Assembly (NCBI GenBank): GCA_043815505.1
Contig: JBDRIV010000002.1
Coordinates: 246,943 to 310,942, forward strand
From: a bacterium
GTDB taxonomy: Bacteria > Patescibacteriota > JABMPQ01 > JBDRIV01
DNA length: 64,000 nt
Direction of reading: 5' to 3'
Shown: positions 14,299-55,326 of the stretch, in pieces
Layout: each line of letters opens with the position of its first letter
Position numbering within the stretch: position 1 is the first letter of the stretch
Notes under the pieces: generated by a model
The model's input: only the letters and a program-made list of their open reading frames with translations
Told to the model about the DNA's origin: nothing
Database searches by the model: none
Translations under genes and position numbers: made by a program

Positions 14299-14402
14299 CC
14301 CGGTAGTACAATCCGGGTCAGAAAATAGAATAAGTCTTTCTATAAGTAATTAATTTATAAGATAGTCAAACATAATAATAATCATTAAATTGTACTACCG
14401 GG
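14299..14402. mobile_element. Inverted-repeat MITE-like element, family 1, copy 1 (cccggtagtacaa ... ttgtactaccggg); the right arm abuts the pheT ATG
   Basis: 13-bp perfect terminal inverted repeats at 14299-14311 and 14390-14402 around an AT-rich core. It lies 2 nt after the pheS stop and immediately before the pheT start. Confidence 0.6.
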
Positions 14403-16826
14403 ATGATTGTTTCTCTTAACTGGTTAAAAGAATATACGGATTCAAAACTTCCAATTAACAAATTGGTAGAAGAATTAACTATGCGTTCAATTGAAGTTAA
14501 TAGTGTAACTAAATTGGGCAAATATTTGGATAAAATAATAATTGGTCAAGTTAAAGAAATGAAAAAACATCCTAACGCTGATCTACTTAATCTGGCTAAA
14601 GTTGATATTGGCAACAAAACTTTGGAAATTGTTTGTGGCGGCAAGAATTTAAAACCAGGACAAAAAGTAGCCGTAGCACAAGTTGGAGCTAAAGTAAATT
14701 TTGATGGCGAGGAATGTAAAATTTCCCCAACCAAAATTAGAGGAGTAGAGAGCATTGGTATGATTTGTTCGGCAAAAGAAATTGGTTTGAGTGATGAATC
14801 TGAAAATCCTAATAACGAACCGCGTATAATGGTGCTTAATGATGACGCACCGGTTGGAACTGAACTAAAAAAATATGGTAGCTTCAACGATAAAATTTTA
14901 GATTTAGATATTCAAGCCAATCGTTCTGATTTAATGGGGCACATTGGCATAGCTAGAGAAATTGCTGTTTTAAATAAACAGAAACTTTCTGTTCATGAAT
15001 ATAAATTGCCATCAACTGTCAATTCCAAGTTGCCTTTAAATATCTCTGTAACTGCCAAGGAATATGTACCACGTTATTCAGCGCTGATAATTTCTGGTTT
15101 AAAAAATATTGCTACTCCTAAATGGATGAAGGACAGACTGGAAGCAATCGGGCAGCGTAGTATTAATTATGTTGTCGATCTGACCAATTATTTGATGCAT
15201 GATACCGGCCAACCACTTCACGCCTTTGATTATGATAGAATTGCTGGTCACCAAATGACAGTTAGAGAAGCTGAGGAAGGAGAAGTAGTACAAACTTTGG
15301 ACGGTGAAAAAAGAAAATTGCAAAAAGGAATGCTCGTTATTACTGACGGCAAGGGTCTAATTGATCTAGCAGGAATTATGGGTGGTAAGAATAGCGAGGT
15401 TGATATCAATACTAAAACAATTGTTTTGCAAGCAGCAATTTTTGATCCTATTAGAATTAGAAAAACTTCTAGGTTGCTTGGACACAGAACTGACGCTGTT
15501 GCTCGTTATGAAAAATCAGTTGATGTTACCGGCACTTTAAATGTTTTAGCTAAAGCTTTAAATATAATTAAAAAAGATCAACCCGGAGCTAAGTTAGAAA
15601 AAATTATTGACCATGACCTTTCGACTTACCAAGAAAATGTAATAAAATTTGACTCAGCTATGGTGAAAAAATTAGGCGGAGTGGATGTTTCTAACAATGA
15701 AAGTAAAACAATTCTTACACAACTGGGAATGAAAGTGGCAGCCAAACAAAATTTATTGCACGTTACTGTTCCATCATTCAGATCAGACATTACTAAACAA
15801 GAAGATTTAGTTGAAGAAATATTAAGAATTTACGGTTATGATAAAATTCCTGAAACCAATTTGGTTCATGATACATCAGCTTCGCATTTAGACAAAGATT
15901 TAGAAGTAAAAAAAGCTATTCATTCATTTTTGTCTGCTCGAGGAGCATACGAAGTTATAAATTATTCTTTCGTTGGTAATAAAGAAGTTATAGATCTAGG
16001 ACTTGATCCCAATAAACATATTCGTATAACTAATCCAATTGATGAGCGCCAGAGCATAATGCGCTCGGAATTAATTTCGGGATTACTTAAAAACACTAAA
16101 GATAATTTACGCTTCCAAGAAAAGTTTTTTATTTATGAACTTGGTAATACTTTTATTCCGCAAACAGACGACGATGTCAGAGAAATTGAAATGTTAGCTG
16201 GAGTTTGTGCGATCGCAAACAGCGAAAAGAAAAAAGGAGAAGTATTTTATAAAGCCAAAGAGACAATTGAAGAATTACTTAATCATTTGAATTTTGAAGA
16301 TATAAGATTTGTTCCGAAAAACTTTTCTAAAGATGAAAAATCAGAAGATTATATTTATCATCCTGGACGCACAGCAGAAATTTGGGCAGGCAACAAATAT
16401 TTAGGTCTAATAGCTGAAGCTCATACCATTGCTTTGAAGAATTTTGGTATAAAAAGCCGAGTTGCAATTTTTGAATTAGAGCTGGAAAAACTAGTACCTT
16501 TAGCCATGAATTACAAAGTATATAAAGAAATCTCAAAATACCCTCCAATTTCCCTTGATTTAGCCTTTTTATTACCGCAAAAAACCTTGATTTCTGATGT
16601 AAAAAGTGCTATGCTTAAAGCAGGTAAACCTCTGCTTGTACAAGCAGATTTATTTGACGAATATTTTGGTCAGAGTGTTCCCCGAAGTGCAAAAAGCTTA
16701 GCTTTCCACTTGTATTTTCAAGACATGAAAAAAACTTTAAATGAAAATGATGTGGCCGGGGTTAAGAAAAATATTATAAGTGAATTAAAGAAATTATTTG
16801 GTGCAACCTTGCGCCAAAAAAAGTAA
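14403..16826 (+). CDS. pheT: Phenylalanine--tRNA ligase beta subunit
   Basis: MIVSLNWLKEYTD N-terminus, B3/4 and B5 domains, 807 aa. Confidence 0.9.
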   Translation: MIVSLNWLKEYTDSKLPINKLVEELTMRSIEVNSVTKLGKYLDKIIIGQVKEMKKHPNADLLNLAKVDIGNKTLEIVCGGKNLKPGQKVAVAQVGAKVNFDGEECKISPTKIRGVESIGMICSAKEIGLSDESENPNNEPRIMVLNDDAPVGTELKKYGSFNDKILDLDIQANRSDLMGHIGIAREIAVLNKQKLSVHEYKLPSTVNSKLPLNISVTAKEYVPRYSALIISGLKNIATPKWMKDRLEAIGQRSINYVVDLTNYLMHDTGQPLHAFDYDRIAGHQMTVREAEEGEVVQTLDGEKRKLQKGMLVITDGKGLIDLAGIMGGKNSEVDINTKTIVLQAAIFDPIRIRKTSRLLGHRTDAVARYEKSVDVTGTLNVLAKALNIIKKDQPGAKLEKIIDHDLSTYQENVIKFDSAMVKKLGGVDVSNNESKTILTQLGMKVAAKQNLLHVTVPSFRSDITKQEDLVEEILRIYGYDKIPETNLVHDTSASHLDKDLEVKKAIHSFLSARGAYEVINYSFVGNKEVIDLGLDPNKHIRITNPIDERQSIMRSELISGLLKNTKDNLRFQEKFFIYELGNTFIPQTDDDVREIEMLAGVCAIANSEKKKGEVFYKAKETIEELLNHLNFEDIRFVPKNFSKDEKSEDYIYHPGRTAEIWAGNKYLGLIAEAHTIALKNFGIKSRVAIFELELEKLVPLAMNYKVYKEISKYPPISLDLAFLLPQKTLISDVKSAMLKAGKPLLVQADLFDEYFGQSVPRSAKSLAFHLYFQDMKKTLNENDVAGVKKNIISELKKLFGATLRQKK

Positions 16827-16860
16827 GGGGTCAATCTTTTGCTTTTTAAATTGAATTATG

Positions 16861-16963
16861 CCCGGTAGTACAAACCGGGTAAAAGAAAGAAATAATTCAT
16901 TTTGCAGAGAATCATAATAAAATAAGTATTAATTTATAAAAATCAGTAAGTTGTACTACCGGG
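16861..16963. mobile_element. Family-1 inverted-repeat element, copy 2; flanked by direct ATG repeats and abutting the gyrB start
   Basis: ATG-cccggtagtacaa...ttaagttgtactaccggg-ATG(gyrB). Its internal core shares aagtattaatttataa with copy 1. Confidence 0.6.
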
Positions 16964-19087
16964 ATGCCCAAGAAAAAAACTACAAAGAAAAAACCGGCAA
17001 AGCGTAAACCGGCTAAGAAGAAAGTTTCTCGAACTAAAAAACCAAAAAAAGCTACTATTAAAAAAGTAAGTAGTAAATCTTCGTATTCTGCTAAAGACAT
17101 CACAGTTTTAAAAGGTTTAGAACCTGTGCGTAAAAGACCAGGAATGTATATTGGTGGAACTGGGGTTGAAGGTTTGCATCATTTGATTTGGGAAGTGGTA
17201 GATAACTCCATTGATGAAGCGATGGCCGGATATTGTACCGAAATTGAAGTAGTGATGGAAAAAAACAATCGTGTGAAAATTTCTGATAATGGTCGTGGTA
17301 TTCCAGTGGAAAAACATAAAGCTACCAGAAAAAGTGCTCTCGAAACGGTTTTAACAACTTTACATGCTGGTGGAAAATTTGGTGGCAGTGGTTATAAAGT
17401 TTCTGGTGGTTTGCATGGCGTTGGTGTTTCGGTTGTTAATGCCCTATCTGTTTGGCTCAAGGCCGAAGTTAGAAGAGACAACAAAGTTTATGTACAAGAA
17501 TATAAAAGAGGCAAAGCTCAAGGAAAATTAAAAACTGATGGTAAATCGGATCATACTGGAACCATAATTTCTTTTGAACCTGACCCAGAAATATTTGATA
17601 CCATTGAATTTTCTTGGAAATCAATTCTTACTCATTTACGTCAACAATCTTATTTAACTAAAGGCGTAAAAATTACTATCATTGATGAACGCGGAGAAGA
17701 ACCTAATTCCTATAGTTTTTATTTTGAAGGAGGAATTAAATCTTATGTGAATCATTTGAATCGCAAAGCCAAAGTGGTTCACCAAACTCCTTTTTATGTT
17801 GAAAAAGAGCAAGATAAAATTATGGTGGAGACAGCTTTGCAATATCGGGAAGATGTAAAAAGTAACGAAGTAAGTTTTGCTAATAACATTCATACGGTTG
17901 ATGGCGGGATGCATTTGGTGGGATTTAGAACTGCTCTTACTCGCGTGCTAAATGACTATGCGCGTAAAAATGGCTTAATTAAGGACAAAGACGAGAATCT
18001 TACCGGAGAAGATATGCGCGAAGGACTAACAGCGGTAGTTTCTGTAAAATTGCAAAATCCTCAATTTGAAGGTCAAACTAAAGCCAAGCTTGGGAACCCA
18101 GAAGCTAGAACTGCTGTTAACGGAATTATTGGCGAAGAGTTTGCTAACTTTTTAGAAGAACATCCAGCTGAAGCTAGAGCTATGATCGGCAAAGTTTTAA
18201 TTGCTGCAAAGGCGCGCATGGCTGCCAAGGCTGCTAAAGATGTTGTGTTAAGAAAAGGTGCTTTAGACGGATTTGCTCTTCCTGGAAAACTGGCGGACTG
18301 TTCCACCAAAGATAGTTCTCGGGCAGAATTGTTTATCGTTGAGGGAGACTCGGCTGGCGGTTCTGCCAAGCAAGGCCGCGACAGAATGTTTCAAGCAATT
18401 TTGCCGTTACGCGGAAAAATTTTGAATGTAGAACGTGCTCGTATTGATCGTATGCTTTCGAATAAAGAAATTAAATCAATTATAATTGCTCTAGGCACTG
18501 GAGTAGGTGAAGAAGTTGATTTAAATAAACTGCGTTATAACCGAATTGTAATTATGACAGATGCTGATGTTGATGGTGCTCACATTAGAACTTTGTTGTT
18601 AACGCTTTTCTATCGTTATTTCCCAGAACTAATTGAGGCTGGCCATTTGTATATTGCTCAACCACCATTATTTAGAATTCAAAAGGGGGCCAAATTTGAA
18701 TATGTATATTCTGAGAATCAAAAAGATGATGTGGTAGCTAAGTTTGAAAAGGATGCTTCGACAAGCTTAGCACAAGATGCTAAAAAAACTATAGAAGAAG
18801 AACAAACAGAAGAAAATGAAGAAGGTGAAAAAACAGAAGAGGGAGAAGAAGAGATAAAGAAAAAATCTGGAGTTTCTATTCAACGCTACAAAGGTTTAGG
18901 TGAAATGAATCCAACCCAATTATGGGATACTACCATGGATCCAGAAACACGTTCTATGTTGCAAGTAAAAGTAGATGACGCGGAAGCAGCTACAGAAAAT
19001 TTTGAAATTCTTATGGGTGATGAAGTTGAGCCACGCAAACGTTTCATTCAAACTCACGCTAAAAAAGTAAAAAATCTGGACGTCTAA
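16964..19087 (+). CDS. gyrB: DNA gyrase subunit B with an N-terminal lysine-rich tail of about 45 aa and a C-terminal acidic insertion
   Basis: GHKL ATPase, Toprim and GyrB C-terminal motifs (EGDSAGGSAKQGRDR, PLRGKILNVE, QRYKGLGEMN), with a PKKKTTKKKPAKRKPAKKK N-terminus. Confidence 0.9.
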   Translation: MPKKKTTKKKPAKRKPAKKKVSRTKKPKKATIKKVSSKSSYSAKDITVLKGLEPVRKRPGMYIGGTGVEGLHHLIWEVVDNSIDEAMAGYCTEIEVVMEKNNRVKISDNGRGIPVEKHKATRKSALETVLTTLHAGGKFGGSGYKVSGGLHGVGVSVVNALSVWLKAEVRRDNKVYVQEYKRGKAQGKLKTDGKSDHTGTIISFEPDPEIFDTIEFSWKSILTHLRQQSYLTKGVKITIIDERGEEPNSYSFYFEGGIKSYVNHLNRKAKVVHQTPFYVEKEQDKIMVETALQYREDVKSNEVSFANNIHTVDGGMHLVGFRTALTRVLNDYARKNGLIKDKDENLTGEDMREGLTAVVSVKLQNPQFEGQTKAKLGNPEARTAVNGIIGEEFANFLEEHPAEARAMIGKVLIAAKARMAAKAAKDVVLRKGALDGFALPGKLADCSTKDSSRAELFIVEGDSAGGSAKQGRDRMFQAILPLRGKILNVERARIDRMLSNKEIKSIIIALGTGVGEEVDLNKLRYNRIVIMTDADVDGAHIRTLLLTLFYRYFPELIEAGHLYIAQPPLFRIQKGAKFEYVYSENQKDDVVAKFEKDASTSLAQDAKKTIEEEQTEENEEGEKTEEGEEEIKKKSGVSIQRYKGLGEMNPTQLWDTTMDPETRSMLQVKVDDAEAATENFEILMGDEVEPRKRFIQTHAKKVKNLDV

Positions 19088-19110
19088 TTTGATCGTGGGC
19101 AAATTCTTGA

Positions 19111-19207
19111 CCCAGCAGTACAACGCTTTATATTTTCAAAGTCTCGGACAATTGATATTTATTTCTATGTTATAAGTTGATTATGCAGTAAAAGTTGTAC
19201 TACTGGG
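19111..19207. mobile_element. Family-1 inverted-repeat element, copy 3 (cccagcagtacaa ... ttgtactactggg), flanked by a TTGA direct repeat
   Basis: One mismatch between the arms. The right flank TTGACA doubles as the -35 of the downstream promoter. Confidence 0.5.
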
Positions 19208-19235
19208 TTGACAAAAAAAACTTATCTTGTAGAAT
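19208..19235 (+). promoter_or_regulatory. Consensus sigma70 promoter (TTGACA-16-TAGAAT) upstream of secE-nusG
   Basis: Near-consensus hexamers. It is followed by the hairpin aagcccgcggccaaagggctt at 19248-19268. Confidence 0.45.
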
Positions 19236-19247
19236 AAAGATAAATAA

Positions 19248-19274
19248 AGCCCGCGGCCAAAGGGCTTTTAAAAA
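19248..19274 (+). promoter_or_regulatory. GC-rich hairpin in the secE leader (terminator- or attenuator-like)
   Basis: Stem agccc/gggct with loop gcggccaaa, followed by tttta. Confidence 0.3.
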
Positions 19275-19286
19275 TCAAAAATTATG

Positions 19287-19353
19287 CCCGGTAGTACAAC
19301 AATTGTTGCTCTACTAAGGTATAATCCAAAAAAAATTAAGTTGTACTATCGGG
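19287..19353. mobile_element. Family-1 inverted-repeat element, copy 4 (short, 67 bp); flanked by ATG repeats and abutting the secE start
   Basis: ATG-cccggtagtacaa...ttaagttgtactatcggg-ATG(secE). Confidence 0.55.
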
Positions 19354-19545
19354 ATGAGTATTTTCAATAAAATTACAGATTTCTTTAAGGAATCTTACAT
19401 CGAACTTAAAAAAGTAGTCTGGCCATCGCGCTCAGAAGTTATTCGCCATACTTTAATAGTAATTGGCGTTAGTCTGGTTGTGGCTATAATTCTAGGAGTT
19501 TTTGACTACGTTTTCACTTATTTAGCAGAAATTACCCTAATTTAA
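19354..19545 (+). CDS. secE: Preprotein translocase subunit SecE
   Basis: 63 aa with a single C-terminal TM. The secE-nusG-rplK-rplA gene context matches. Confidence 0.8.
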   Translation: MSIFNKITDFFKESYIELKKVVWPSRSEVIRHTLIVIGVSLVVAIILGVFDYVFTYLAEITLI

Positions 19546-19549
19546 ATTT

Positions 19550-20095
19550 ATGCCAAAACAAATTGGGAAAAAGGAAAAAAATTGGTACGTTTTACATACC
19601 TATTCAGGTTATGAAGAAAATGTGGCGCAAAATTTGCGTCAACGTATCGATTCTATGGATATGGAAGATAAAATCTTCCAAGTTTTAGTACCTAAAGAAA
19701 AGAAAATTAAGATTAAAAATGGTAAACGTTCAGTTGTTGAAGAAAAGATTTTCCCCGGATATGTTTTAGTAGAAATGATTGTAACAGATGATTCTTGGTA
19801 TGTGGTTAGAAATACTCCTAACGTTACAGGTTTTGTCGGGTCAGGAACTACGCCAACTCCAATTTCCAATGATGAGGTTTCAACCTTGCAGAAAAGAATG
19901 GGTGTTAAAGAACCTAAATATAAAGTTGATGTGGTGGTTGGTGAAGCTGTAAAAATTACTGATGGTCCCTTTAAAGATTTTGATGGCAAAGTTAACGCGG
20001 TTGATAATGAAAAAGGTAAAATTAAAGTTTTAGTTTCAATATTTGGTCGCGAAACACCTGTCGAACTAGATTTTTTACAAGTAAAAAAGATTTAA
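19550..20095 (+). CDS. nusG: Transcription termination/antitermination factor NusG
   Basis: NGN domain (NWYVLHTYSGYEENV) and KOW motif (GEAVKITDGPFKDFDGKV). Confidence 0.9.
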   Translation: MPKQIGKKEKNWYVLHTYSGYEENVAQNLRQRIDSMDMEDKIFQVLVPKEKKIKIKNGKRSVVEEKIFPGYVLVEMIVTDDSWYVVRNTPNVTGFVGSGTTPTPISNDEVSTLQKRMGVKEPKYKVDVVVGEAVKITDGPFKDFDGKVNAVDNEKGKIKVLVSIFGRETPVELDFLQVKKI

Positions 20096-20099
20096 ACAA

Positions 20100-20645: not shown

Positions 20646-20704
20646 TTCTTCGACAAGTTCAGGATAAACACAATAAAGAACAAAGCTTATAATTTAACAA
20701 ATAT

Positions 20705-21916: not shown

Positions 21917-21925
21917 TACAAAAAC

Positions 21926-22357: not shown

Positions 22358-22372
22358 ATTAAACAAAATATT

Positions 22373-26097: not shown

Positions 26098-27420
26098 TTA
26101 AGATTCAATACCCTTTATTTTGCCAAATAACGAAAGGGGCAAAGCTTTTGTAACTAGGATGTTTTGCCAACTACCAACTAATTTTGGGAAGCCTTCAAAT
26201 TGAATTGATTTAAAATTCTGAGTCTTTCCTTGTAATAAAACTTGACCATTTTTATGTTTAGCCATTTCTACCAGAACTTTGAATTCTTTTCCCACATAGC
26301 TTTTATTAATTTCGAAGGCATGTTTTTTTAAAACTTTGGTTAACTCCAATTCTCTTCTCTTTTTCTCTTCTTTAGAAACATCATCGGGAAATACTTTAGC
26401 TGAAGCCGTTCCGGGGCGAGGGGAATACATGGCTGTATAAGCCATATCAAATTTAACATTATTAAAAAGCTTTAAGGAATCCTCGAATTCCTTTTTAGTT
26501 TCCCCAGAAAAGCCAACAATTAAATCGGTAGAGAGATTGAGATTGGGAATTTGTTTTTTAAGTATTTTCACAATTTCTAAATAGTGTTCTATAGTATATC
26601 GTCTGTTCATTCTATGAAGTACGTTGTTGTTTCCAGCTTGAACTGGAAGATGAACAAAATTACCAATTTTAGGTTCAGTTGCAATAATATCAATGAGTTC
26701 ATCGGAGAAATAATTGGGATGAGAGGTGAAAAAGCGAATCCAATAGTCACCAGAAAATTTTGTACAAGCTTTAAACAAATCGGCTAGGTTTTCAAGGGAG
26801 CTATTTTTATCAGGATTCTCATATTTATCTATTGTTTGCCCCAGCAGTGTAATCTCCTTATAACCTTTTTTCACTAAATCTTCAAATTCAGCAAGAATTT
26901 CAGATGCGGGACGAGAAACCTCGCGACCACGAGTAAAAGGAACGGCACAATATGTACAAAACTGATCACAACCGGTCATGATGGGCAAATAGGCTTGAAA
27001 AGAAGATTTATATTTAGGAAATATTTTAAAATAATCAGAATCGGGATTTATATCATCAAATGTATCAGTTAGCTTGGAGAGAGAGGTGGGAAGAGAGGGT
27101 ATGTCTTTAATGTCCAAAATAATATCAAAATTGCTTTTCATTTTTACTTTGTCAGTTGGTAGAACACAACCAGAAAGAATTGTTATGAGTTCACGGCGAC
27201 GTCGACGCTTCTGCCAATTTCTAGATTTGCCAACAATTCTATCAACTGCTTTCTGACGGACTGAGCAGGCGATAACCACAATAATACCAGCCTCTTTTTC
27301 TGAGGTGGTTTTAGAATAACCTATTTGTTCAAGCAAAGAGGAAATTCGTTCGGCATCAGACTCATTCATTTGACATCCTAGCGTAAATAGGTAATATTGC
27401 TTAGATAATTGCTTTTGCAT
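26098..27420 (-). CDS. miaB: Radical-SAM methylthiotransferase, MiaB family (tRNA-i6A37 methylthiotransferase)
   Basis: UPF0004 N-terminal domain (LGCQMNESD), radical SAM CDQFCTYC, C-terminal TRAM domain. Confidence 0.85.
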   Translation of the reverse strand: MQKQLSKQYYLFTLGCQMNESDAERISSLLEQIGYSKTTSEKEAGIIVVIACSVRQKAVDRIVGKSRNWQKRRRRRELITILSGCVLPTDKVKMKSNFDIILDIKDIPSLPTSLSKLTDTFDDINPDSDYFKIFPKYKSSFQAYLPIMTGCDQFCTYCAVPFTRGREVSRPASEILAEFEDLVKKGYKEITLLGQTIDKYENPDKNSSLENLADLFKACTKFSGDYWIRFFTSHPNYFSDELIDIIATEPKIGNFVHLPVQAGNNNVLHRMNRRYTIEHYLEIVKILKKQIPNLNLSTDLIVGFSGETKKEFEDSLKLFNNVKFDMAYTAMYSPRPGTASAKVFPDDVSKEEKKRRELELTKVLKKHAFEINKSYVGKEFKVLVEMAKHKNGQVLLQGKTQNFKSIQFEGFPKLVGSWQNILVTKALPLSLFGKIKGIES

Positions 27421-27487
27421 CCCGGTAGTACAATTAATACTAAATAAATATAAAACTTTGTAATTTACCCCGGATTGTACTACCGGG
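27421..27487. mobile_element. Family-1 inverted-repeat element, copy 5 (67 bp); flanked by CAT repeats and abutting the miaB start codon
   Basis: CAT(miaB start)-cccggtagtacaa...ccccggattgtactaccggg-CAT. Confidence 0.55.
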
Positions 27488-27538
27488 CATAAGTAGAAGT
27501 AAGTTTATCACATATAAGCGAACAAGCAACGCGCACTG

Positions 27539-27628: not shown

Positions 27629-27733
27629 CCCAGTAGTACAACAAAAAGAGATAATTATTGTTAAAATTAGAAGATTTAATTATCTTAGGTTTATAGAAAA
27701 CATTAATAAATCAATTTGGTTGTACTATCTAGG
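27629..27733. mobile_element. Family-1 inverted-repeat element, copy 6 (degenerate right arm)
   Basis: cccagtagtacaa ... ttgtactatctagg. Confidence 0.4.
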
Positions 27734-27756: not shown

Positions 27757-29268
27757 ATGCCAATAAACCCGTTTTCAGGAAATAGAGGTGGTGGAGCTAT
27801 TCGCCCTGGACAACCAATCCAAGGTGGTAGTTTTGGTAATTCAGATAATAAAAAGAAGGATGATATTGATAAAGAGCCAGGTTCCGTTATTGGTTCTACG
27901 CAAGTAATGCCAGGTTTGGGTAGTGCACCTCAATCACAACCTGAGAAAAAGACAGCTAGAAGTTTTAATTTTGGTCAGTTTGGTCATAAAGATAAAAAGG
28001 ATGATCAACCAAATTTCAAACCTAAAGCCGCTTTTAATTTGCCTAAAAAAGAAATTCCAACAAGTCCACCAGTGAAACCACAAGAACCTTCTTCTCCAAA
28101 GAAGTCTTCGGGGCTAGGAAAAACTCTTTTAACAATACTAATAATTGTTGCTTTACTGGCTGGCTTTGTTTATTTATGGTTTGACCTAAGCAGTTTGAAG
28201 AATAATTTGGATATAGATAGTATTAAGGAATTAAATAAGGTTACTGCCGAATTAAGAGATAATATTGAATCTCTAACAACTTCTGCTGAACTTGATAATC
28301 GAATAGATCAATTGGAAGGAGATATGGATAATGTAAAAGAAGCATTAGGTGACACTTCTGAAGATAGTTTAGCTAGCGTAATCGCTTTGCTTAAACAATA
28401 TGACACCGACGGTGATGGTTTGAATGATTATGAAGAACAAGTTACTTATAGAACTGATATAAATAATAAAGACACCGACGGTGATGGTTATGAAGACGGT
28501 GTGGAAGTTGACAATGGCTATAATCCTAATGGCGAAGGTCGTTTGGATGAAGGAACAGAAGAAAACAACACTGAGGAAAATGAAGATACCGATGCAGCCA
28601 CAGCTGCCAGAACTGCATATGAAAATTTTATGGATTACAGACGTCAGCAAAAGCAAACTGAAACAGAAAATTTAATGACAGTAGCTGCTTTAGAGGCAAT
28701 TTCCGACAATGATTCTTTATATGGTCCAGGCAACGGTGTTACCTTTGCTGAATATGAAATAACTTCGGCTGTAGGTGAAAGTAAAACAAAAGCTAAATTT
28801 ATTGCGAAAGAATATTTATCAAATGCTTCCGATGCCGAAGATTATGAGTTGCACGAAACTACTTTAGAGAAAATAAATGGTTCTTGGCTGGTTACAAATT
28901 ATAATGAAGAGGCTATAGAAAAAACAACTCAAAGTGAAAGTGCTGTTGTGCAAGAACAGACAAGTAAGTTTATGAATGCGCGTATGGTTTCCAATCGCGC
29001 TACTGCTTTAGAATTTTTGACCGATGCAGCTAAGAACAAATATCAGTTTTCTGATATTTTACTTGGTCAGTCTGATCCGCATTATGAATCATACCGAATT
29101 ATGAAAATTGAAAATTCTGGCAATAACAAATATACTATAAATATTGAAATAAGTGAGGCTTCAAATGGAACGGTAACAAGAACTTTTGAAGAAACTTTAT
29201 CTGTAGAATTAGTTTCATCTGAGTGGTTGGTCAGTGCCATAAGTGGTAATATATATGATGCCAGCTAA
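27757..29268 (+). CDS. Membrane-anchored protein with thrombospondin-type-3-like Ca-binding repeats
   Basis: A single TM helix, repeated DTDGDGLNDYEE / DTDGDGYEDGVEVDNGYNPNGEG motifs, and a C-terminal domain. Confidence 0.5.
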   Translation: MPINPFSGNRGGGAIRPGQPIQGGSFGNSDNKKKDDIDKEPGSVIGSTQVMPGLGSAPQSQPEKKTARSFNFGQFGHKDKKDDQPNFKPKAAFNLPKKEIPTSPPVKPQEPSSPKKSSGLGKTLLTILIIVALLAGFVYLWFDLSSLKNNLDIDSIKELNKVTAELRDNIESLTTSAELDNRIDQLEGDMDNVKEALGDTSEDSLASVIALLKQYDTDGDGLNDYEEQVTYRTDINNKDTDGDGYEDGVEVDNGYNPNGEGRLDEGTEENNTEENEDTDAATAARTAYENFMDYRRQQKQTETENLMTVAALEAISDNDSLYGPGNGVTFAEYEITSAVGESKTKAKFIAKEYLSNASDAEDYELHETTLEKINGSWLVTNYNEEAIEKTTQSESAVVQEQTSKFMNARMVSNRATALEFLTDAAKNKYQFSDILLGQSDPHYESYRIMKIENSGNNKYTINIEISEASNGTVTRTFEETLSVELVSSEWLVSAISGNIYDAS

Positions 29269-36813: not shown

Positions 36814-36837
36814 AATATTGCTTAGAGCTTATAGCAG

Positions 36838-36890
36838 GGAGCAAATAGCAACGGCATAACTATTAGCCATTTGCCATATGCTAGATGCCA
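36838..36890. repeat. Tandem heptamer repeats upstream of dnaE
   Basis: ttatagc|agggagc|aaatagc|aacggca... then tagccat|ttgccat|atgctag|atgccag. Confidence 0.4.
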
Positions 36891-44933: not shown

Positions 44934-45488
44934 ATGGCACTTAAAAACGTCATAGAAAAAATTAGTCAAGATGCTAACACTGAAGCTTCTAAAAATATAA
45001 AAGAAGCTGGTCTTCAGGCTGACAAAATTTTGCAAGTGGCTGATAAAAAATCAGAAATGATAAGAACCAAAGTTTTGGAACAGGGAAGAGTGAAAGCTGA
45101 TAAAATTCATGAGCAAGCTGTGAGCGCTGCGGTTATGTGGGAGAGAAACGAAATTCTTAAAAGCAAACAAAAAACTTTGCAGGAAGTTTATGAAGAATTA
45201 TCAGCTAAGATGCAGAATCTATCTGACGAAGAACACAAGCAGTTGCTAAGCAAACTACTAAAAGGTTTACCAACTGAAGGTGAAATTGTAGCCACAAAGA
45301 AGAGTCAAAGTTTACTGCGTGATTTAGTTTCACAAGCTGGGCTAAATTTGGCCAGTGAAACTATTGCTGGCGATGGTGGCTTCATGTATCGATCTGATGA
45401 GATTGATATTGACCAAAGATTTGAAAGTGTTCTGAAATCTTTGCGCGAAGAAACTGAAGCCGGAGCAGCTAATAAACTTTTTAACTAA
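44934..45488 (+). CDS. V/A-type ATPase subunit E
   Basis: 184 aa, coiled coil. Confidence 0.7.
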   Translation: MALKNVIEKISQDANTEASKNIKEAGLQADKILQVADKKSEMIRTKVLEQGRVKADKIHEQAVSAAVMWERNEILKSKQKTLQEVYEELSAKMQNLSDEEHKQLLSKLLKGLPTEGEIVATKKSQSLLRDLVSQAGLNLASETIAGDGGFMYRSDEIDIDQRFESVLKSLREETEAGAANKLFN

Positions 45489-45494
45489 CTTAAG

Positions 45495-45567
45495 CCCAGT
45501 AGTACAACCATAAAGTTGTTCTGCTGGCAAAACCAGTAATTATTAATCATTAAGTTGTACTACTGGA
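45495..45567. mobile_element. Family-1 inverted-repeat element, copy 7, inside the ATPase operon and abutting the subunit C ATG
   Basis: cccagtagtacaa...ttaagttgtactactgga-ATG. Confidence 0.5.
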
Positions 45568-46575
45568 ATGGGTGTAACAAACGATAAATATTTGTTTGCC
45601 ACCGGCCGGTTGAGATCACTGGAGGCAAAAGTTTTGTCGCCAACTGACATTGATCGCATGGTGGATGCTAAAGATGCAGAAGAAGCATTGAAAGTTTTTA
45701 ATGACCTTTCTTTAGCAGACGAGCGAGTGGACATGAAAGACGCCACTTCTTTTGAGGCGGCTGTTATGCACGACTTGGGTCAATTAAAAGATGAAATCGC
45801 TGGTCTGACACCTGATAATGTTTTATTGGAATGGTTGTTTTTAGCAGAAGATGCTCACAATGTGAAGTTGCTTCTAAAACTAGCCAAAGGTGAGTTAGTT
45901 GAAGAAAAATATTTAGGTTCATTTTCCAACTTAGCTTTGTTACCACTGGAAAAACTAAAAATTCTTCTAGACGGTAAAAATGAAGAAGTAAGTGAAGTTT
46001 ATAGAAATTTTATTACTGAAGTTTTGGAGAACAAAGCAAAAGCAGAAGAAGCGATTCAAATTGATATGATGGTTGATAAGGCTTACACAAAAGCGCTTGG
46101 TGCCATGTCAAAAATAATCAGAAAAGATTTTGTTAAGAAAATTACCGAGTACAGAATTAATGCTGCTAACATTAAAACTTCTATTCGTCTAAAACTTATG
46201 GACAAACCAGTTGGAGTTTTAAATGAAGCATTTAATGAAGGTGGAAACCTAAAGTTAAATGATGTAGTAGAAGTGTATGGTGGACAAACAACAGACTTGG
46301 CTAAAGTTTTGCAATCTAGTATTGATGGTTCACTGAAAGAAAGTATCAGTAAAGCTTTGGAAGAAAAACAATTGAGCGAATTGGACAAAGCTTTGGAAGA
46401 ATATGAATTGCAACTCTGTGCCGAAACTACATACATAGCTTATGGACCAGAAATTGTTGTGGCTTACACAATTCTAAAACAAGCAGCGCTAAAAAATATT
46501 CGTTTAATAATGAGTGGCAAAGTAAATGACATTCAGCCAGCTGAAATCAGACAATACTTAAGAGTCAAGCAATAA
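45568..46575 (+). CDS. V/A-type ATPase subunit C (V0 d-like)
   Basis: 335 aa, helical. Confidence 0.7.
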   Translation: MGVTNDKYLFATGRLRSLEAKVLSPTDIDRMVDAKDAEEALKVFNDLSLADERVDMKDATSFEAAVMHDLGQLKDEIAGLTPDNVLLEWLFLAEDAHNVKLLLKLAKGELVEEKYLGSFSNLALLPLEKLKILLDGKNEEVSEVYRNFITEVLENKAKAEEAIQIDMMVDKAYTKALGAMSKIIRKDFVKKITEYRINAANIKTSIRLKLMDKPVGVLNEAFNEGGNLKLNDVVEVYGGQTTDLAKVLQSSIDGSLKESISKALEEKQLSELDKALEEYELQLCAETTYIAYGPEIVVAYTILKQAALKNIRLIMSGKVNDIQPAEIRQYLRVKQ

Positions 46576-46576
46576 A

Positions 46577-48858: not shown

Positions 48859-48876
48859 TAGAAAGGACTACATACT

Positions 48877-50256: not shown

Positions 50257-50337
50257 AAGAGCAAATAGAAAAGAGTAAAACATCGGCCGGTATAATAGTT
50301 TCTTTACTCTTTAATCTTCAAATTTTAATCTTTCTAA

Positions 50338-50961
50338 ATGGCTAAACTAAACGTCAATCCAACACGAATGGAGCTACTGAAGTTACGTAAGCGCGTAACT
50401 ACTGCTAAACGTGGTCACAAACTGCTTAAAGAAAAGCGTGATGGTTTGATGAAAAAATTTATGGCCATAATCAGAGAAGCAAAAGAAGCACGCGAGCAAA
50501 TTGAAGTAGGACTGGCAGATGCCTTCAAAAAATTCTTATTTGCTTCAGCTTCCATGCGCTCAGATGTTTTAACAGAAGCTTTGGTTCTGCCATCACAAAA
50601 AATATCTCTGACAACTGATACAGAAAATGTGATGAGTGTAGAGATCCCCATATTTGATATAAAGCAAGAAGGCGATTTCTTATCATACGGATTAATAAAC
50701 ACAGCCTCAGGACTTGATAATTCTTTACAGAAGTTTTCTGATAATTTATCGCAAATGGTAAAGTTAGCACAAATTGAACACTCGGCTTTATTGCTGGCTC
50801 AAGAAATTGAGAAAACCAGGCGCAGAGTAAATGCCTTAGAATATGTTCTTATTCCCAATTTGGAAGAGACGGTTAAATATATTGAAATGAAACTAGCTGA
50901 GCAAGAAAGAGCCAATGTTGCTAACGTCATGCGCGTCAAGGAACTCATTTCCCAAGAATAA
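50338..50961 (+). CDS. V/A-type ATPase subunit D
   Basis: 207 aa, MAKLNVNPTRMELLKLRKR. Confidence 0.85.
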   Translation: MAKLNVNPTRMELLKLRKRVTTAKRGHKLLKEKRDGLMKKFMAIIREAKEAREQIEVGLADAFKKFLFASASMRSDVLTEALVLPSQKISLTTDTENVMSVEIPIFDIKQEGDFLSYGLINTASGLDNSLQKFSDNLSQMVKLAQIEHSALLLAQEIEKTRRRVNALEYVLIPNLEETVKYIEMKLAEQERANVANVMRVKELISQE

Positions 50962-51009
50962 CGACTTTTGCTATAATTTAGCTAGTTAAAATAAAATTAA
51001 ATTATTTCT

Positions 51010-52077
51010 ATGAATAAATTCTTTCAAAAAATTAAGGAGGATAAGAGATGGCAAATGGGTTTAGTTATTGCCATCGTTTTATTAATTACTATAATTGTAT
51101 TTCTCTACTTCAGGTTTAGTGATACTGATAATCCTTTTGAGCGACTCGTAAGTGGTGATACCTATCGCAAGCTTGACGGTGTTATGGTTGATAAGGAAAA
51201 AGTTAATCCGCCAATTGTAGCGGTGATGATTGAAAATTTATCTACTATCAGAGACACTCAAGCTGGACTTGATACAGCGCCGGTTGTTTATGAGGCTTTG
51301 GCTGAAGGTGGTATAACCAGGTTTTTAGTCATCTTCCCAGACTTAGATGTTGCCGATATTGCAGCGACTAGAATTGGTCCAGTACGTTCTGCTCGTCCTT
51401 ATTATTATGAATGGTCATCAGAATATGATGCTCTCTACACTCATGTTGGTGGTAGCCCAGAAGCTTTGGCGGGAATTAGTGGTCTGGGAATTCCCGACCT
51501 AAACGCTATGTATTCTGATTCAGTTTATTTCTGGCGCGATACTGCCCTGGCTGCTCCCCATAATTTGTTCATCAATGGCCAAAATTTAAGTTTTGCTCTG
51601 CGTGACAAAGATATGCTTGATTTGCAGCCTGACTATCAAGGTTGGAAATATGAAGATGAAGCAAGTTCAGATGATCGAGGAAGTGGTGAAAATGATGTCA
51701 CAATTGATTTCTCTTCTATTGGCTATGTTGTTAAATGGGATTATGATCAGAATGATAATGAATACTATCGTTTTAATGCTGGTGAAAAACATATAGATTT
51801 CAATACTGGTCAGCAAATTACTGCCGATAATGTAATTGTGCAATATGTAAACGCAACTGACACTGGAGACAATGGTCGTTTATCTATGGACGTTACTGGT
51901 AATGGCACCGCCGTGATGTTTAGAAACGGTATGACATATGAAGGAACTTGGGAAAAAGATTCACGAGAAGACAGAACTTTGTTTTACACTGAAGACGGCA
52001 AAGAATATACCTTAAACCGTGGTACTACCTGGGTGGAAATTATTCCTCCCGACCGCGATGTCGAATATAGTCTTTAA
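51010..52077 (+). CDS. Hypothetical secreted/anchored protein, DUF3048 (YerB)-like
   Basis: N-terminal TM. VAVMIENLSTIRDTQAGL...VYEALAEGGITRF...GPVRSARPYYY. Confidence 0.4.
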   Translation: MNKFFQKIKEDKRWQMGLVIAIVLLITIIVFLYFRFSDTDNPFERLVSGDTYRKLDGVMVDKEKVNPPIVAVMIENLSTIRDTQAGLDTAPVVYEALAEGGITRFLVIFPDLDVADIAATRIGPVRSARPYYYEWSSEYDALYTHVGGSPEALAGISGLGIPDLNAMYSDSVYFWRDTALAAPHNLFINGQNLSFALRDKDMLDLQPDYQGWKYEDEASSDDRGSGENDVTIDFSSIGYVVKWDYDQNDNEYYRFNAGEKHIDFNTGQQITADNVIVQYVNATDTGDNGRLSMDVTGNGTAVMFRNGMTYEGTWEKDSREDRTLFYTEDGKEYTLNRGTTWVEIIPPDRDVEYSL

Positions 52078-52091
52078 AATCTAAAACCAAA

Positions 52092-53210
52092 ATGGCAGAA
52101 GAAAAACCAAAAAAGAAATCTAAAATAAAAGAATTTTTTAAGAAACTGGGCGAGGATAGACGCTTACAAATTTATGTCAGCGTGGCAGTTTTAGTAATTG
52201 TCGTGGCTGTAACTTGGGGGATTGTGATCGCCGTGAACGACAAAGATGATGATGACGTAAAAATAAGTTCTAAAAAAGTTGTAGAAGAAGATGTTAATAT
52301 TAACGAACGTCGTTTGGATGGCATGATAGTTGCTCCCGAAGATGCCAATAAATGGCCAGTAGCTATTATGATTGAAAATCTAATTGCTGCCAGACCACAA
52401 GCTGGTTTGATTGATGCGCAACTTGTTTATGAAACATTAGCTGAATCTGGAATAACTCGTTTTATGACAATATTTTCTGGTGATATGCCAGACAAAATTG
52501 GACCAGTGCGATCATCAAGGCGATACTATTTAGAATGGGCACAACCCTTAGATCCTGTTTATGCTCATGCTGGTGGCAGTCCACAAGCCCTGGAACATAT
52601 TAGTGCTTTTGGGATTAAAAATCTAAATGCTATTGCTAGCGCCGCCGCTTATTTCTGGCGCGGTGAAGGTAGTGCTCCGCACAATCTTTATACTAGTTGG
52701 GAAAAAATGACCTTTGCAGTACGCGATAAAGAATTAACGAATGCTACACCAGAATATACCAAATGGTTATTTAAAGATGCCACAGAGGATTTACCCACAG
52801 AAGAAAAAACAATTGATATAGAATTTTCTTCAGCCACTTACAATGTGCATTATGAATACGATTCAGCCACTAACGATTATAAAAGATTTCATTCTGATAC
52901 TCCGCACACCGATAGAAATACCGGAAATCAAATAAAAGTTAAAAACGTGGTGATACAAAAAGTCCCAGCTGAAGTAGGACTTAGTGAGAAGGGAAGAATT
53001 GATTTGGATTTGCATGGTACTGGTGAAGCGATACTTTGTTCTGACGGTGTTTGTGAGCAAGGTACTTGGAGCAAACCAGATTTAGATACACGTACTGTAT
53101 TCACAGGCGCCGGTGGTGAGGAATACGAATTCACACGAGGAAATATTTGGGTGGAAGTTGTTCCAGGAGAAAGAAATGTTAACTATACCGAATTACAAGC
53201 CACTGAATAA
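52092..53210 (+). CDS. Tandem paralog of the preceding DUF3048-like protein
   Basis: Same motifs (AIMIENLIAARPQAGL...VYETLAESGITRF...GPVRSSRRYY). Confidence 0.4.
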   Translation: MAEEKPKKKSKIKEFFKKLGEDRRLQIYVSVAVLVIVVAVTWGIVIAVNDKDDDDVKISSKKVVEEDVNINERRLDGMIVAPEDANKWPVAIMIENLIAARPQAGLIDAQLVYETLAESGITRFMTIFSGDMPDKIGPVRSSRRYYLEWAQPLDPVYAHAGGSPQALEHISAFGIKNLNAIASAAAYFWRGEGSAPHNLYTSWEKMTFAVRDKELTNATPEYTKWLFKDATEDLPTEEKTIDIEFSSATYNVHYEYDSATNDYKRFHSDTPHTDRNTGNQIKVKNVVIQKVPAEVGLSEKGRIDLDLHGTGEAILCSDGVCEQGTWSKPDLDTRTVFTGAGGEEYEFTRGNIWVEVVPGERNVNYTELQATE

Positions 53211-53211
53211 A

Positions 53212-54045
53212 CTACAAATTAACAACAAAAAGTCTTGGTCGTTTGGCCAAGTCTTTTTTTACTTTAATTTTAACGTTAGGGTAAAGTATTTTGATTTTTA
53301 GAGCAAAACGATTTATGTAACTCGGATCAATTTCCATATAAATTATGCCATCACGTTTTAATTTTTTAACTGCTTGTTGTAATAAATCTAAATATAGTTC
53401 AAAACCTCTTCGTCCACCAAGTAGTGCCTTAAAACTTTCATATCTTTTAATATCAGTGGGAAGATCTCCCCAACGGCGATTAGGAAGATAGGGGAGATTG
53501 GCAACTATAATATCAAATTTGCCGTAAATTGATTTTAGCAAATTGCTTTTTTTGAATTTGATGCGAGAAGAAACTTCATGTAGTTTAGCATTTTCTTTTG
53601 CTATGCGAAGTGAAATGTCATCTATATCGGAAGCAACTATTTTACTTTTTGGCATACTTTTTGCCAAAGCAATAGCAATGCAACCAGAGCCTGTGCCCAC
53701 ATCACAAATTTTAGATTTAGGACGCGAATTTTTTATAACCTCCTCAACCAGCAGTTCCGTTTCGGGTCGAGGAACTAAAACTCCACGGCGAATTATAAAT
53801 TCTAAACCATAAAATTCTTTCTTGCCGGTAATGAAAGCAACCGGTTCTCCTTTGCGGCGTCTCTTGATTACTCGGCGAAAATTTACAATTTCTTTTTTAG
53901 TCAGCTCGTTTTCCGGATGAGCTAATAAAAATTCTTTTGGTCTTTTCGTAATATAAGCTAAAAGAATTTCCGCATCTAAATCTGCCGAATCACTAATTTT
54001 AATTATTTTCTTCTCAGCGTAAGCCAAGGCTTCTTTAATTGTCAT
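53212..54045 (-). CDS. prmC: Release factor glutamine N5-methyltransferase
   Basis: VGTGSGCIAIALA SAM motif and a NLPY variant of NPPY. Adjacent to prfA. Confidence 0.8.
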   Translation of the reverse strand: MTIKEALAYAEKKIIKISDSADLDAEILLAYITKRPKEFLLAHPENELTKKEIVNFRRVIKRRRKGEPVAFITGKKEFYGLEFIIRRGVLVPRPETELLVEEVIKNSRPKSKICDVGTGSGCIAIALAKSMPKSKIVASDIDDISLRIAKENAKLHEVSSRIKFKKSNLLKSIYGKFDIIVANLPYLPNRRWGDLPTDIKRYESFKALLGGRRGFELYLDLLQQAVKKLKRDGIIYMEIDPSYINRFALKIKILYPNVKIKVKKDLAKRPRLFVVNL

Positions 54046-54054
54046 AAATATAAA

Positions 54055-55221
54055 TTATCCTACCCAATAATTATTTAGAAACATATTGAGGAACAGAGCG
54101 TACAGTAAAACTGATGTTACTAATACCATTATATACAAATATTCACGTTTTAACACCCTTGCCAAATAAATGAAGGCAGGGAAGAGAACAATGACATATC
54201 TGGTGGTGCTAATTAGTGTTCCGGTTACAGAACTGGCTAAGAGAAATAAAACCATCATTAAACCATAAGAAACTCGAAATCTAATGGCAATAATTATAGC
54301 CAATACAAAGAATAAAACAAAAGCAATAAAATCAAAACTGTTGGCCAAGTGATAAGCCTGCCCGCCAGTTAGCATGGTTAGAAAATCATTAAAATAAGTT
54401 GTCAGTGTTGAAAAGAAACCTATAATACCTTCACCAAGCTCCCGACTCCAAACTTTCTGCGCATTTATAAAAGTTAGGGGATCACCAAATTTGTTCCACA
54501 AAAAAATCATATAGGAAATTATCCCCAGTGGTATCAACAACAAGTTTAAAATATTTACTTTTATATCTCTAAATTTGAAATTTCTATATTCCAAATATTC
54601 CACCAGCAAAACTATCAGCATTAAAATTCCCACACTGCGGGTGGCGGCAGAAAACATCGCCAAAATTGAAGCCAGTAAATATTTATTCTTGCGAGCAAAA
54701 TAAAACGAACTGGCAATTAAAAACAAAAATAAACTTTCTGTATAAACGGATAGAAAGAAAAAAGCAGTGGGGAAAAGTAGTAAGAGAAAAACTGCTCGTA
54801 AAGATTTTTTCTGGTTTAAATCTAAATTCGCTAATTTATAAAGAAAAATAATTGCTCCGAACAAGGTCAGATGAGAAATTATTAAACCGGAAATTAAAGG
54901 ATCAATTCCAGTTAAAGATACAAACTTCATTAAAAGAGGGTAGAGGGGAAAGAAGGCGGTGTTGGAGGCAGTAGCAGTATAATAATAACCATGTTCTACA
55001 ATGGATAAATACCAACCCGAATCCCAATGAATCAAATGCGTCATCCAATCGGGTAAATAAGTTGGCAACCAAGGATTATCGGGAATCCAAGGATAAGCTT
55101 TGTCCAAAGAAACAAAAAGGCGGCTACTGGCCACCAAACTAAATATGAAAATTATTAGGCGATAAAAAACAAATAGAATTGAAATCTCTAACCATTCTTT
55201 ACGGGAGAGAAATTTAGACAT
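54055..55221 (-). CDS. GT-C fold membrane glycosyltransferase, PIG-V/DUF2029-like mannosyltransferase family
   Basis: 388 aa, about 10 TM, WDSGWYLSIVEHGY motif. Confidence 0.45.
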   Translation of the reverse strand: MSKFLSRKEWLEISILFVFYRLIIFIFSLVASSRLFVSLDKAYPWIPDNPWLPTYLPDWMTHLIHWDSGWYLSIVEHGYYYTATASNTAFFPLYPLLMKFVSLTGIDPLISGLIISHLTLFGAIIFLYKLANLDLNQKKSLRAVFLLLLFPTAFFFLSVYTESLFLFLIASSFYFARKNKYLLASILAMFSAATRSVGILMLIVLLVEYLEYRNFKFRDIKVNILNLLLIPLGIISYMIFLWNKFGDPLTFINAQKVWSRELGEGIIGFFSTLTTYFNDFLTMLTGGQAYHLANSFDFIAFVLFFVLAIIIAIRFRVSYGLMMVLFLLASSVTGTLISTTRYVIVLFPAFIYLARVLKREYLYIMVLVTSVLLYALFLNMFLNNYWVG

Positions 55222-55326
55222 CCCGGTAGTACAACTTAATGATTAATTTAATTGTCAGACGTTTTGCCAAGCAATACATTTGTAAAGAAATTAACTAGTA
55301 AAATATTTTAGGGTTGTACTACCGGG
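55222..55326. mobile_element. Family-1 inverted-repeat element, copy 8; flanked by CAT repeats and abutting the start of the GT-C gene
   Basis: CAT-cccggtagtacaacttaa...ttgtactaccggg-CAT. This copy shows the full 18-bp terminal repeat CCCGGTAGTACAACTTAA. Confidence 0.6.

Follow-up and report, generated by a model that had tools for sequence, protein, structure and literature searches.

Inverted-repeat elements on start codons in Patescibacteria, probable derivatives of a small element that carries a GIY-YIG nuclease gene

The window analysed here is a stretch of 64,000 nucleotides from a member of the Patescibacteriota (GenBank assembly GCA_043815505.1, contig JBDRIV010000002.1, positions 246,943 to 310,942 of the forward strand). 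It carries eight short intergenic elements bounded by inverted repeats, six of which sit directly on the start codon of a gene. A sequence-only reading of this DNA had listed the eight elements and proposed that they are a non-autonomous transposable element that duplicates 3-4 bp of its target and prefers ATG. Motif scanning and inspection of the arms confirmed all eight, at the positions given below. With up to two mismatches allowed, the motif CCCGGTAGTACAA and its complement match the window 17 times; shuffled sequences give 0.38 +/- 0.63 matches, and 17 was reached in none of 100 shuffles. Fifteen of these matches are arms of the eight elements, which measure 67-105 nt each, at a density of about 1 copy per 8 kb. 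The two others (14001 and 52020) are intragenic and look like chance matches, and copy 6 has a right arm so degenerate that the motif does not match it. Pfam identified the neighbouring genes as pheS, pheT, gyrB, secE, a MiaB-type radical SAM enzyme, V-ATPase subunits E and C, a PIG-V-like glycosyltransferase and prfA. The copies read earlier as lying inside the pheS/pheT and V-ATPase E/C junctions do lie there. The copies, and the one promoter-like site among them, are as follows.

14299 to 14402, plus strand: copy 1, 104 nt; pheS stop codon TAA (14294-14296) upstream, pheT ATG at 14403 abutted; distal flank AAG, not ATG; distal arm a mini-hairpin, CCCGGTAGTACAATCCGGG
16861 to 16963, plus strand: copy 2, 103 nt; between ATG 16858-16860 and the gyrB start ATG 16964-16966; the upstream ATG opens an upstream open reading frame (uORF) of 19 codons, MPGSTN...
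19111 to 19207, plus strand: copy 3, 97 nt; variant arms CCCAGCAG.../...CTACTGGG; between TTGA 19107-19110 and TTGA 19208-19211
19208 to 19235, plus strand: promoter-like site TTGACA-16-TAGAAT, 11/12 positions matched, between copies 3 and 4; counterpart kept in the nearest relative, L141
19287 to 19353, plus strand: copy 4, 67 nt; between ATG 19284-19286 and the secE start ATG 19354-19356; internal TATAAT; uORF of 28 codons overlapping the secE start
27421 to 27487, minus strand: copy 5, 67 nt; between CAT 27418-27420, the start of the MiaB-type gene, and CAT 27488-27490
27629 to 27733, plus strand: copy 6, 105 nt, decayed; right arm GTTGTACTATCTAGG; distal flank AAG; 23 nt before the ATG at 27757
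45495 to 45567, plus strand: copy 7, 73 nt, in the V-ATPase operon; 6 nt past the subunit E stop (45486-45488), subunit C ATG at 45568 abutted; the same G-to-A change at position 4 of both arms; distal flank AAG
55222 to 55326, minus strand: copy 8, 105 nt; between CAT 55219-55221, the start of the PIG-V-like glycosyltransferase gene, and CAT 55327-55329

Arm length is 13-14 nt. In seven copies the arms match perfectly or nearly so, copy 6 being the degenerate exception. All eight copies fold with a terminal stem of 13-14 bp (free energy -21 to -30 kcal/mol, z -3.6 to -5.8), and folding as good as that of the real copies was obtained with none of 200 shuffles. The interiors enclosed by the stems are A+T-rich. 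The gene-proximal end of several copies reads ...(A)ATCATTAAGTTGTACTACCGGG and then ATG; in copies 1, 2 and 5 the distal end forms a small hairpin, CCCGGTAGTACAA(A/T)CCGGG. Copy 8 had been credited with a terminal repeat of 18 bp. Its own inverted repeat is in fact 14 bp, and CCCGGTAGTACAACTTAA is complementary to the gene-proximal ends of copies 4 and 7, not to the other arm of copy 8. Orientation relative to the ATG is constant in the six start-codon copies (6/6). Where uORFs are present they run over 12-28 codons, and four copies have none.

In each copy a stable stem is formed, and its 3′ arm runs up to the AUG. This speaks for the stems being host regulatory RNA, ancestral or exapted, that serves as an RNase III-type processing site yielding mRNAs with short leaders or as a translational gate on the AUG, and that stays at start codons for its value to the cell. 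In the same sense, the operon copies (pheS-pheT, V-ATPase E-C, prfA-glycosyltransferase) and copy 4 must be transcribed, and the window copies are old yet retained before essential genes. In Neisseria, Correia elements are transcribed along with genes and are substrates of RNase III. Against a host RNA, a search of Rfam 15 at gathering score returned eight tRNAs in the window and no RNA family matching the elements, whose interiors are moreover unconserved. Comparison with other genomes, described below, makes this reading of the stems very improbable.

Six copies (1, 2, 4, 5, 7 and 8) abut a start codon without spacer. The seven counted before included copy 6, which ends 23 nt short of its ATG with a degenerate arm. 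The window contains 45 ATG starts versus 153 other intergenic ATG or CAT trinucleotides, and all six ATG-flanked copies lie on true starts (p ~1e-4 if any tolerated ATG would serve). The direct repeats described on either side of five copies were all found again: ATG...ATG at copies 2 and 4, CAT...CAT at copies 5 and 8, and TTGA...TTGA around copy 3. The duplication in the window is of ATG alone, 3 bp, the base triplet before the ATG being GGG. Copies 1, 6 and 7, with their AAG flank, show none; that an upstream ATG was changed to AAG in these three, two of them inside operons, by selection against a decoy start is speculation. Two further junctions are informative. At copy 8 the prfA stop lies 1 nt beyond the distal CAT, which gives TAA-T-ATG as the ancestral junction. 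Copy 3 lies within the -35 box of the secE promoter, and the duplicated TTGA rebuilds TTGACA (19208-19213). Two copies had been placed downstream of consensus promoters, of which a single near-consensus site was recovered, the one before copy 4. Being downstream of it, copy 4 should be transcribed whole. Promoter-like matches are not enriched over the region 14200-19600 (21 versus 18.6 expected).

We then compared the pheS-to-secE region with that of the closest relative in the databases, GCA_964643415.1 (L141). The order pheS-pheT-gyrB-secE-nusG is the same as in the window. L141 lacks all four elements that this region of the window contains, and the repeat finds no match in it even with two mismatches allowed. 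The sequence-only reading had named empty orthologous sites beforehand as a check, and such sites are present in L141 at pheS/pheT, pheT/gyrB and gyrB/secE, the three intergenic regions that hold copies 1-4 in the window. At the first junction pheS and pheT overlap in L141 (TTTTAATG), and the window has TTTTAAAG, copy 1 and ATG. At the second, L141 reads ...CAGTT and then ATGCCCAAGAAAAAA, the window ...GAATTATG, copy 2 and ATGCCCAAGAAAAAA; the host N-terminus is conserved across the insertion junction, GyrB beginning MPKKK in both genomes. At the third, L141 has an intact TTGACA-16-TATAAT promoter and a short GC hairpin with no element, and the window has the same promoter and hairpin. These empty sites favour insertion over a conserved untranslated region. 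They contradict the conserved host regulatory stem that had been raised as an alternative, and together with the target duplications they contradict the ancestral form of the regulatory RNA set out above. After L141, further PheT matches are at most 43% identical and come from Patescibacteria such as Kerfeldbacteria.

Two observations were made beside this comparison. The short GC hairpin between the secE promoter and start, followed by a T-run (AGCCCGCGGCCAAAGGGCTTTT; 19248-19270 in the window, about 6045-6070 in L141), might act as a leader or attenuator, or else stabilise the 5′ end. The gyrB gene of L141 (2620-5979) contains an intein (1119 aa, PF14890); that of the window (16964-19087, 707 aa) is intein-free and has a Lys-rich N-terminal tail and a Glu-rich insertion.

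The repeat is not confined to this organism and was found in many Patescibacteria, at 37-63% GC. A scan with the single-arm 14-mer over one genome per species gave mostly chance matches in unrelated phyla. An inverted partner arm about 70-110 nt away was present only for matches in Patescibacteria, namely metagenome-assembled genomes (MAGs) of Uhrbacteria, Saccharibacteria, Moranbacteria, Parcubacteria and Paceibacteria. Searched with the two-arm pattern, metagenomes yielded 19 loci (42-63% GC) and viral contigs yielded no match. When oriented by the adjacent gene, nearly all copies read YATG, CCCGGTAGTACAAC, about 70 nt of variable sequence, GTTGTACTACCGGG, and then TATG opening an open reading frame (ORF). 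Beyond the window, 22-23 of 30 elements abut an ORF start, for example those of rpsL (in two lineages), EF-P and S21. Repeat carriers thus span a wide range of base composition, and some have a Shine-Dalgarno sequence before the captured ATG where the window has almost none. This makes one common host mechanism unlikely, and is a further point against regulatory stems of host origin.

Several properties of these copies are those of a mobile family. In one Uhrbacteria MAG, two copies of a 138-nt subfamily lie at different gene starts and align without gaps, 115 of 146 columns being identical. At L107 a tandem pair of elements has a common flank, and at L120 three copies within 1 kb precede three consecutive genes. 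The arms co-vary: 10 changes are identical on both arms, against about 0.26 by chance. The repeat also often reaches past the 14-nt core, with sequences that are varied and mutually complementary. An A/C asymmetry at arm position 9 (GTAC versus GTCC) was considered as a polarity marker and rejected, since it is seen on either arm. Most copies in other Patescibacteria are bordered by YATG...YATG or CATR...CATR. All four bases are duplicated at L132 and L124. At L132 the duplication is not of ATG (CAAG/CAAG), and at L136 the flanks are TCAA/TCGA. Direct repeats such as CAAG at L132 and TTGA at copy 3 indicate true duplications. At L124 (9500-9597) the gene-less element is stop-free and in frame, and the upstream ATG would lengthen EF-P N-terminally by 34 residues (MPGSTT...VVLPG).

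A longer element with identical repeats was then found at nine loci, where it encloses a gene. This full-length form measures 290-345 bp. It consists of terminal inverted repeats of 14-20 bp (CCCGGTAGTACAAC[TTCGAA]...) and one gene for a GIY-YIG nuclease. The first such copy, at L057 in an Uhrbacteria MAG, is 302 nt long, and its ORF, in frame with the left repeat, matches PF01541 (GIY-YIG) with E = 2e-14. Eight of the nine loci have the standard architecture of terminal repeat, ORF, stop, terminal repeat, followed by T-ATG and the host ORF: L057 (an adenylate-kinase-like gene), L138, L139 (def), L140, L142 (pyruvate:ferredoxin oxidoreductase operon), L145, L150 and L151. Written out, the layout is ...TATG, CCCGGTAGTACAACTTCGAA, ORF, stop, TTCGAAGTTGTACTACCGGG, T, ATG-host ORF. 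At L151 the insertion is at the start of rplR (L18), midway through the spc operon of ribosomal-protein genes. Other hosts of full-length copies are a Wzy-type polymerase gene, a subunit ORF in the pyruvate:ferredoxin oxidoreductase operon and a DUF4178 gene. At five of the seven loci beyond L057, 6-28 nt separate the nuclease stop from the host ATG; at L140, where a palindrome is nested in the element, the distance is 61 nt. At L150 an AGGAGG lies 7 nt before the captured ATG.

The left repeat itself encodes residues 2-6 of the nuclease (MPGSTT), the sequence being ATG followed by CCC GGT AGT ACA AC. Among 71 homologues of the nuclease (83-121 aa), 54 begin with MP[GSD][SRTG]T, and 48 of these 54 have no internal Met before strand 1. 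Position 16-18 of the repeat varies in the right arm and in the protein alike, TCG being matched by S and TGG by W. The ninth locus, L146, is a variant: its left flank is not ATG, position 16-18 is a TAG stop, and the ORF runs from an internal ATG (MFWVYVLL). As read from these loci, the full-length element is normally devoid of a start codon of its own and borrows the ATG of the host. Compared in this way, the sequences show integration at ATG with duplication of the ATG, the upstream copy opening the nuclease ORF and the downstream copy staying with the host gene. The gene-less derivatives are likewise shown, at the level of sequence, to have the ends and the target of the full-length form.

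Two side observations concern these loci. At L140 (3290-3320) the nested palindrome is a 31-nt, arms-only structure, CCCAGTAGCACAAC-TTC-GTTGTCCTACTGGG, in the right end of the full-length element with CGAAG on both sides; it is thus a minimal derivative or else the product of slippage in replication. At L142 (2501-2528) the gene for the gamma subunit of pyruvate:ferredoxin oxidoreductase, as called, ends within the inserted element. The upstream gene formerly overlapped the next start, and the insertion has therefore altered its C-terminal residues.

The nuclease is a single domain of about 94 aa. Of the columns invariant in 48 sequences, most lie in the part matched by PF01541, residues 9-78 of the 94-aa query, or belong to a GGRRFLAKR block at the C-terminus. 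With the AlphaFold2 model, which has a mean predicted local distance difference test (pLDDT) score of 84.7, the best Foldseek matches were 1zg2 (UPF0213 protein BH0048) and the Slx1 chains 6sei, 7cq2 and 4xm5, at 21-35% identity, followed by I-TevI and UvrC. With the group I intron endonuclease model TIGR01453 the score was 24 bits, the cut-off being 56. Among 1.8 billion representatives, a profile search returned 3,573 relatives at E <= 1e-10. Most of these start at strand 1 (MFYVYVL...), without the MPGSTT extension, which makes the repeat-bearing group a small subclade of a stand-alone Slx1-like family. That stand-alone lineage has been described as one of vertically inherited repair enzymes, the selfish GIY-YIG members stemming from a UvrC-like lineage (PMC1564403).

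The presence of this gene bears on what moves the elements. Terminal inverted repeats with a short duplication of fixed length are the hallmark of DDE transposition, and a repeat start of CC(C) with a duplication of about 4 bp is a feature of the IS1380 family and of piggyBac. The gene-less elements could accordingly be miniature inverted-repeat transposable elements (MITEs) mobilised by a conventional, for example DDE-type, transposase encoded elsewhere. The GIY-YIG gene would then be a passenger or selfish cargo of one subfamily, and the literature searched holds no precedent for transposition driven by a GIY-YIG enzyme. We consider this unlikely. The only ORF between the repeats at all nine full-length loci is the GIY-YIG gene (92-106 aa, PF01541), with no DDE transposase among them, and in the loci read no transposase gene was seen beside the copies. 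Furthermore, the repeat encodes the nuclease N-terminus in 54 of 71 family members, and repeat variants co-vary with that N-terminus (TCG, TGG and TAG at position 16-18 giving S, W and stop).

A different mobile system was also weighed, that of hairpins of the REPIN or IS200/IS605 type moved as single strands by an HUH (Y1) transposase beside TATG, with no true duplication. The elements are indeed hairpin-forming doublets of about 100 nt, their orientation to the ATG is fixed in the six window copies, copies 1, 2 and 5 have a further small hairpin in the distal arm, and the motif contains GTAG, a feature of REP sequences. Against this, the ends are inverted, not direct, and the non-ATG direct repeats CAAG/CAAG and TTGA/TTGA point to real duplications. 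No Y1 transposase gene is present in any locus read, and the gene enclosed is that of a GIY-YIG protein. We regard such a mechanism as the most remote of the explanations considered.

Taken together, the empty sites in L141, the duplications, the paralogous copies and the cognate full-length element support the earlier proposal of a non-autonomous element with a 3-4 bp duplication that prefers ATG. We conclude that the repeats are probably MITE-type derivatives of a small element of Patescibacteria which integrates on a host ATG, duplicates it, and carries a GIY-YIG gene in its full form. All eight window copies have lost the nuclease gene; six sit on start codons, one lies in the -35 box of secE and one is decayed. 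The upstream ATG stays joined to the promoter and leader of the host and opens the nuclease ORF. On this account, cleavage of the element ends and of the (T)ATG target would be the work of the GIY-YIG protein. Its kinship with Slx1 would fit recognition of a hairpin or four-way junction formed by the repeats, with the duplicated ATGs at its base. Specificity for start codons could be kept up because only insertion at the ATG both expresses the nuclease and leaves the host gene its start.

Host translation would have to cope with the 13-14 bp stem that closes on the AUG. We suppose that it may be melted by ribosomes arriving from upstream, either from a uORF on the duplicated ATG or from a preceding cistron that stops 2-6 nt before the stem (copies 1, 7 and 8). 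Access to the stem-closed AUG might then come from unmasking by upstream translation, or from initiation bridged across the stem.

A number of facts weigh against this interpretation. To our knowledge, GIY-YIG enzymes are hydrolytic nucleases with no precedent for target duplications of fixed length. No nuclease gene was found within the 64-kb window, so that the autonomous copy is seen in other genomes only. The duplication varies in length. Outside the window, the right flank is nearly always T followed by ATG, and in at least 5 cases the left flank has C where the right has T; in the window, copies 1, 6 and 7 carry AAG where an upstream ATG would be expected. The window copies have little interior sequence in common and their interiors do not align. 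The sole comparison genome is distant, with a PheT 51% identical to that of the window, and the metagenome sample was drawn with a pattern that demanded two perfect arms, which biases it to young copies. Finally, the stops of the uORFs in the gene-less copies are scattered, about 101-104 nt to either side of the host ATG, which also argues against simple termination-reinitiation, an explanation we rejected.

Other candidates were set aside as well. Pairing of the arms with 16S rRNA amounts to a weak resemblance to the 530 loop. Integron attC sites would have their core sites at the wrong end, and the genes concerned here have housekeeping functions. An internal promoter giving a near-leaderless mRNA was discarded, as no consistent -35/-10 pair occurs at a fixed distance inside the elements. 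Mimicry of the initiator tRNA anticodon stem and RNA-level splicing were both dismissed on inspection.

As to the genomic background, a tblastn search of the window revealed no nuclease or transposase-like gene, in agreement with the earlier statement that a transposase is missing there. The reported absence of a Shine-Dalgarno sequence at the element-bearing genes holds, and is not special to them: an SD-like 4-mer at -20 to -4 occurs in 4 of the 44 ATG genes of the window, whose leaders are 78% A+T. In this organism, translation seems to start with no Shine-Dalgarno pairing. The TATAAT boxes that lie 20-38 nt before the ATG of its other genes point to leadered mRNAs.

The window contains other repeats. 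A second family of about 32 nt, ATAGCATATGGCTTATGGCTTGTAGCGAATGG-like and 69-81% identical, is located for the most part next to tRNA genes and at gene ends, and has no relation to the start-codon elements. Its members and the remaining features are these.

2387-2422, 10629-10660, 36817-36848, 61645-61676, 61857-61888, 62038-62069 and 62534-62565: second repeat family
1266-1300, 1342-1376 and 62169-62203: GC-rich palindromes CGGGATTTTCCCCCTTCAGGGGATCACCCGCAGGG adjoining tRNA genes, conspicuous in a genome of 35% GC
62107-62176 and 62264-62333: perfect duplication of 70 nt, 157 nt apart, comprising most of the 5′ part of tRNA-Tyr
63230-63815: long degenerate tandem Gly-X-Y (collagen-like) coding repeats, running off the end of the window

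The upstream, partial copy of tRNA-Tyr is followed by a GC-rich hairpin repeat, and the duplication may be a scar of integration or rearrangement.

We looked for earlier accounts of such elements. Searches of open-access papers and bioRxiv found no description of the motif, of the MPGSTT signature, of a GIY-YIG transposase or of start-codon-targeted elements in Patescibacteria. The gene-less forms are probably to be counted with MITEs, a known kind, the novelty being the full-length form that captures a host start codon. The chances seem about even that we are dealing with an unrecognised class of transposable element, about 300 bp long, made of inverted repeats and an Slx1-like GIY-YIG gene with neither promoter nor start codon, which integrates on host start codons, and whose MITE stems imply an undescribed way for ribosomes to reach the AUG.

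If the nuclease does mobilise the element, the GIY-YIG fold would join the enzymes that drive cut-and-insert mobile DNA in prokaryotes. Selfish behaviour would then also be found in the Slx1-like lineage, which is treated as a vertically inherited repair family (PMC1564403). The parasitic strategy, of which we found no description, would consist in having no expression signals of its own and relying on an exact landing on a host ATG. The consequences for the hosts concern essential functions: pheT, gyrB, secE, rpsL, the L18 gene, EF-P and def must be translated from an AUG closed by a stem of 13-20 bp, the native leader being lost, and some of the organisms with such stem-closed AUGs use no Shine-Dalgarno sequence. 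In practice, MPGSTT N-termini, uORFs and occasional in-frame fusions such as that of EF-P at L124 affect gene calls in Patescibacteria MAGs.

Several known systems resemble these elements in part. The nearest likeness among gene-less elements is to the Correia (nemis) MITEs of Neisseria, of about 100-150 bp, which are also devoid of a transposase gene, have inverted repeats and a short duplication, lie in many copies beside genes, are co-transcribed and form a hairpin in the transcript. They differ in duplicating TA, in having no link to start codons and in having no known cognate autonomous element, whereas the elements described here duplicate the start codon and have a cognate form with a gene for a GIY-YIG nuclease. 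REPIN/RAYT and IS200/IS605 systems likewise comprise hairpin-forming extragenic repeats of about 100 nt in high copy number. However, they make no duplication, use an HUH transposase and lie mostly at the 3′ ends of genes, in contrast to the duplications and the start-codon site observed here. With IS1380 and piggyBac the elements have in common the CC(C) start and a sequence-specific duplication of about 4 bp (TTAA for piggyBac, YATG here), but those encode a DDE transposase of several hundred residues, and none lies between the repeats here.

As for translation, a functional analogy is offered by split ribosome-binding sites, translational coupling and ribosome shunting (T4 gene 38, the MS2 coat-replicase junction and the 35S leader of cauliflower mosaic virus), in which a stable hairpin lies at a start codon and its effect depends on ribosomes that translate or terminate a short way upstream. 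None of those hairpins was made by a mobile element.

The enzyme, too, has its counterparts. Free-standing GIY-YIG homing endonuclease genes (T4 seg/mob, I-TevI family) are selfish genes placed between or before host genes, often in essential operons. Their products have a large DNA-binding domain, the genes move by recombination into one and the same allele, and inverted repeats and duplications are both absent, whereas the protein described here has about 94 aa, its element occupies many unrelated genes and MITE derivatives accompany it. The closest structural matches are UPF0213/COG2827 (B. halodurans BH0048, PDB 1zg2) and eukaryotic Slx1, which have a minimal GIY-YIG domain of the same length. 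Unlike them, the clade described here lies between inverted repeats with duplications on either side, and the repeat encodes an additional N-terminal stretch of the protein.

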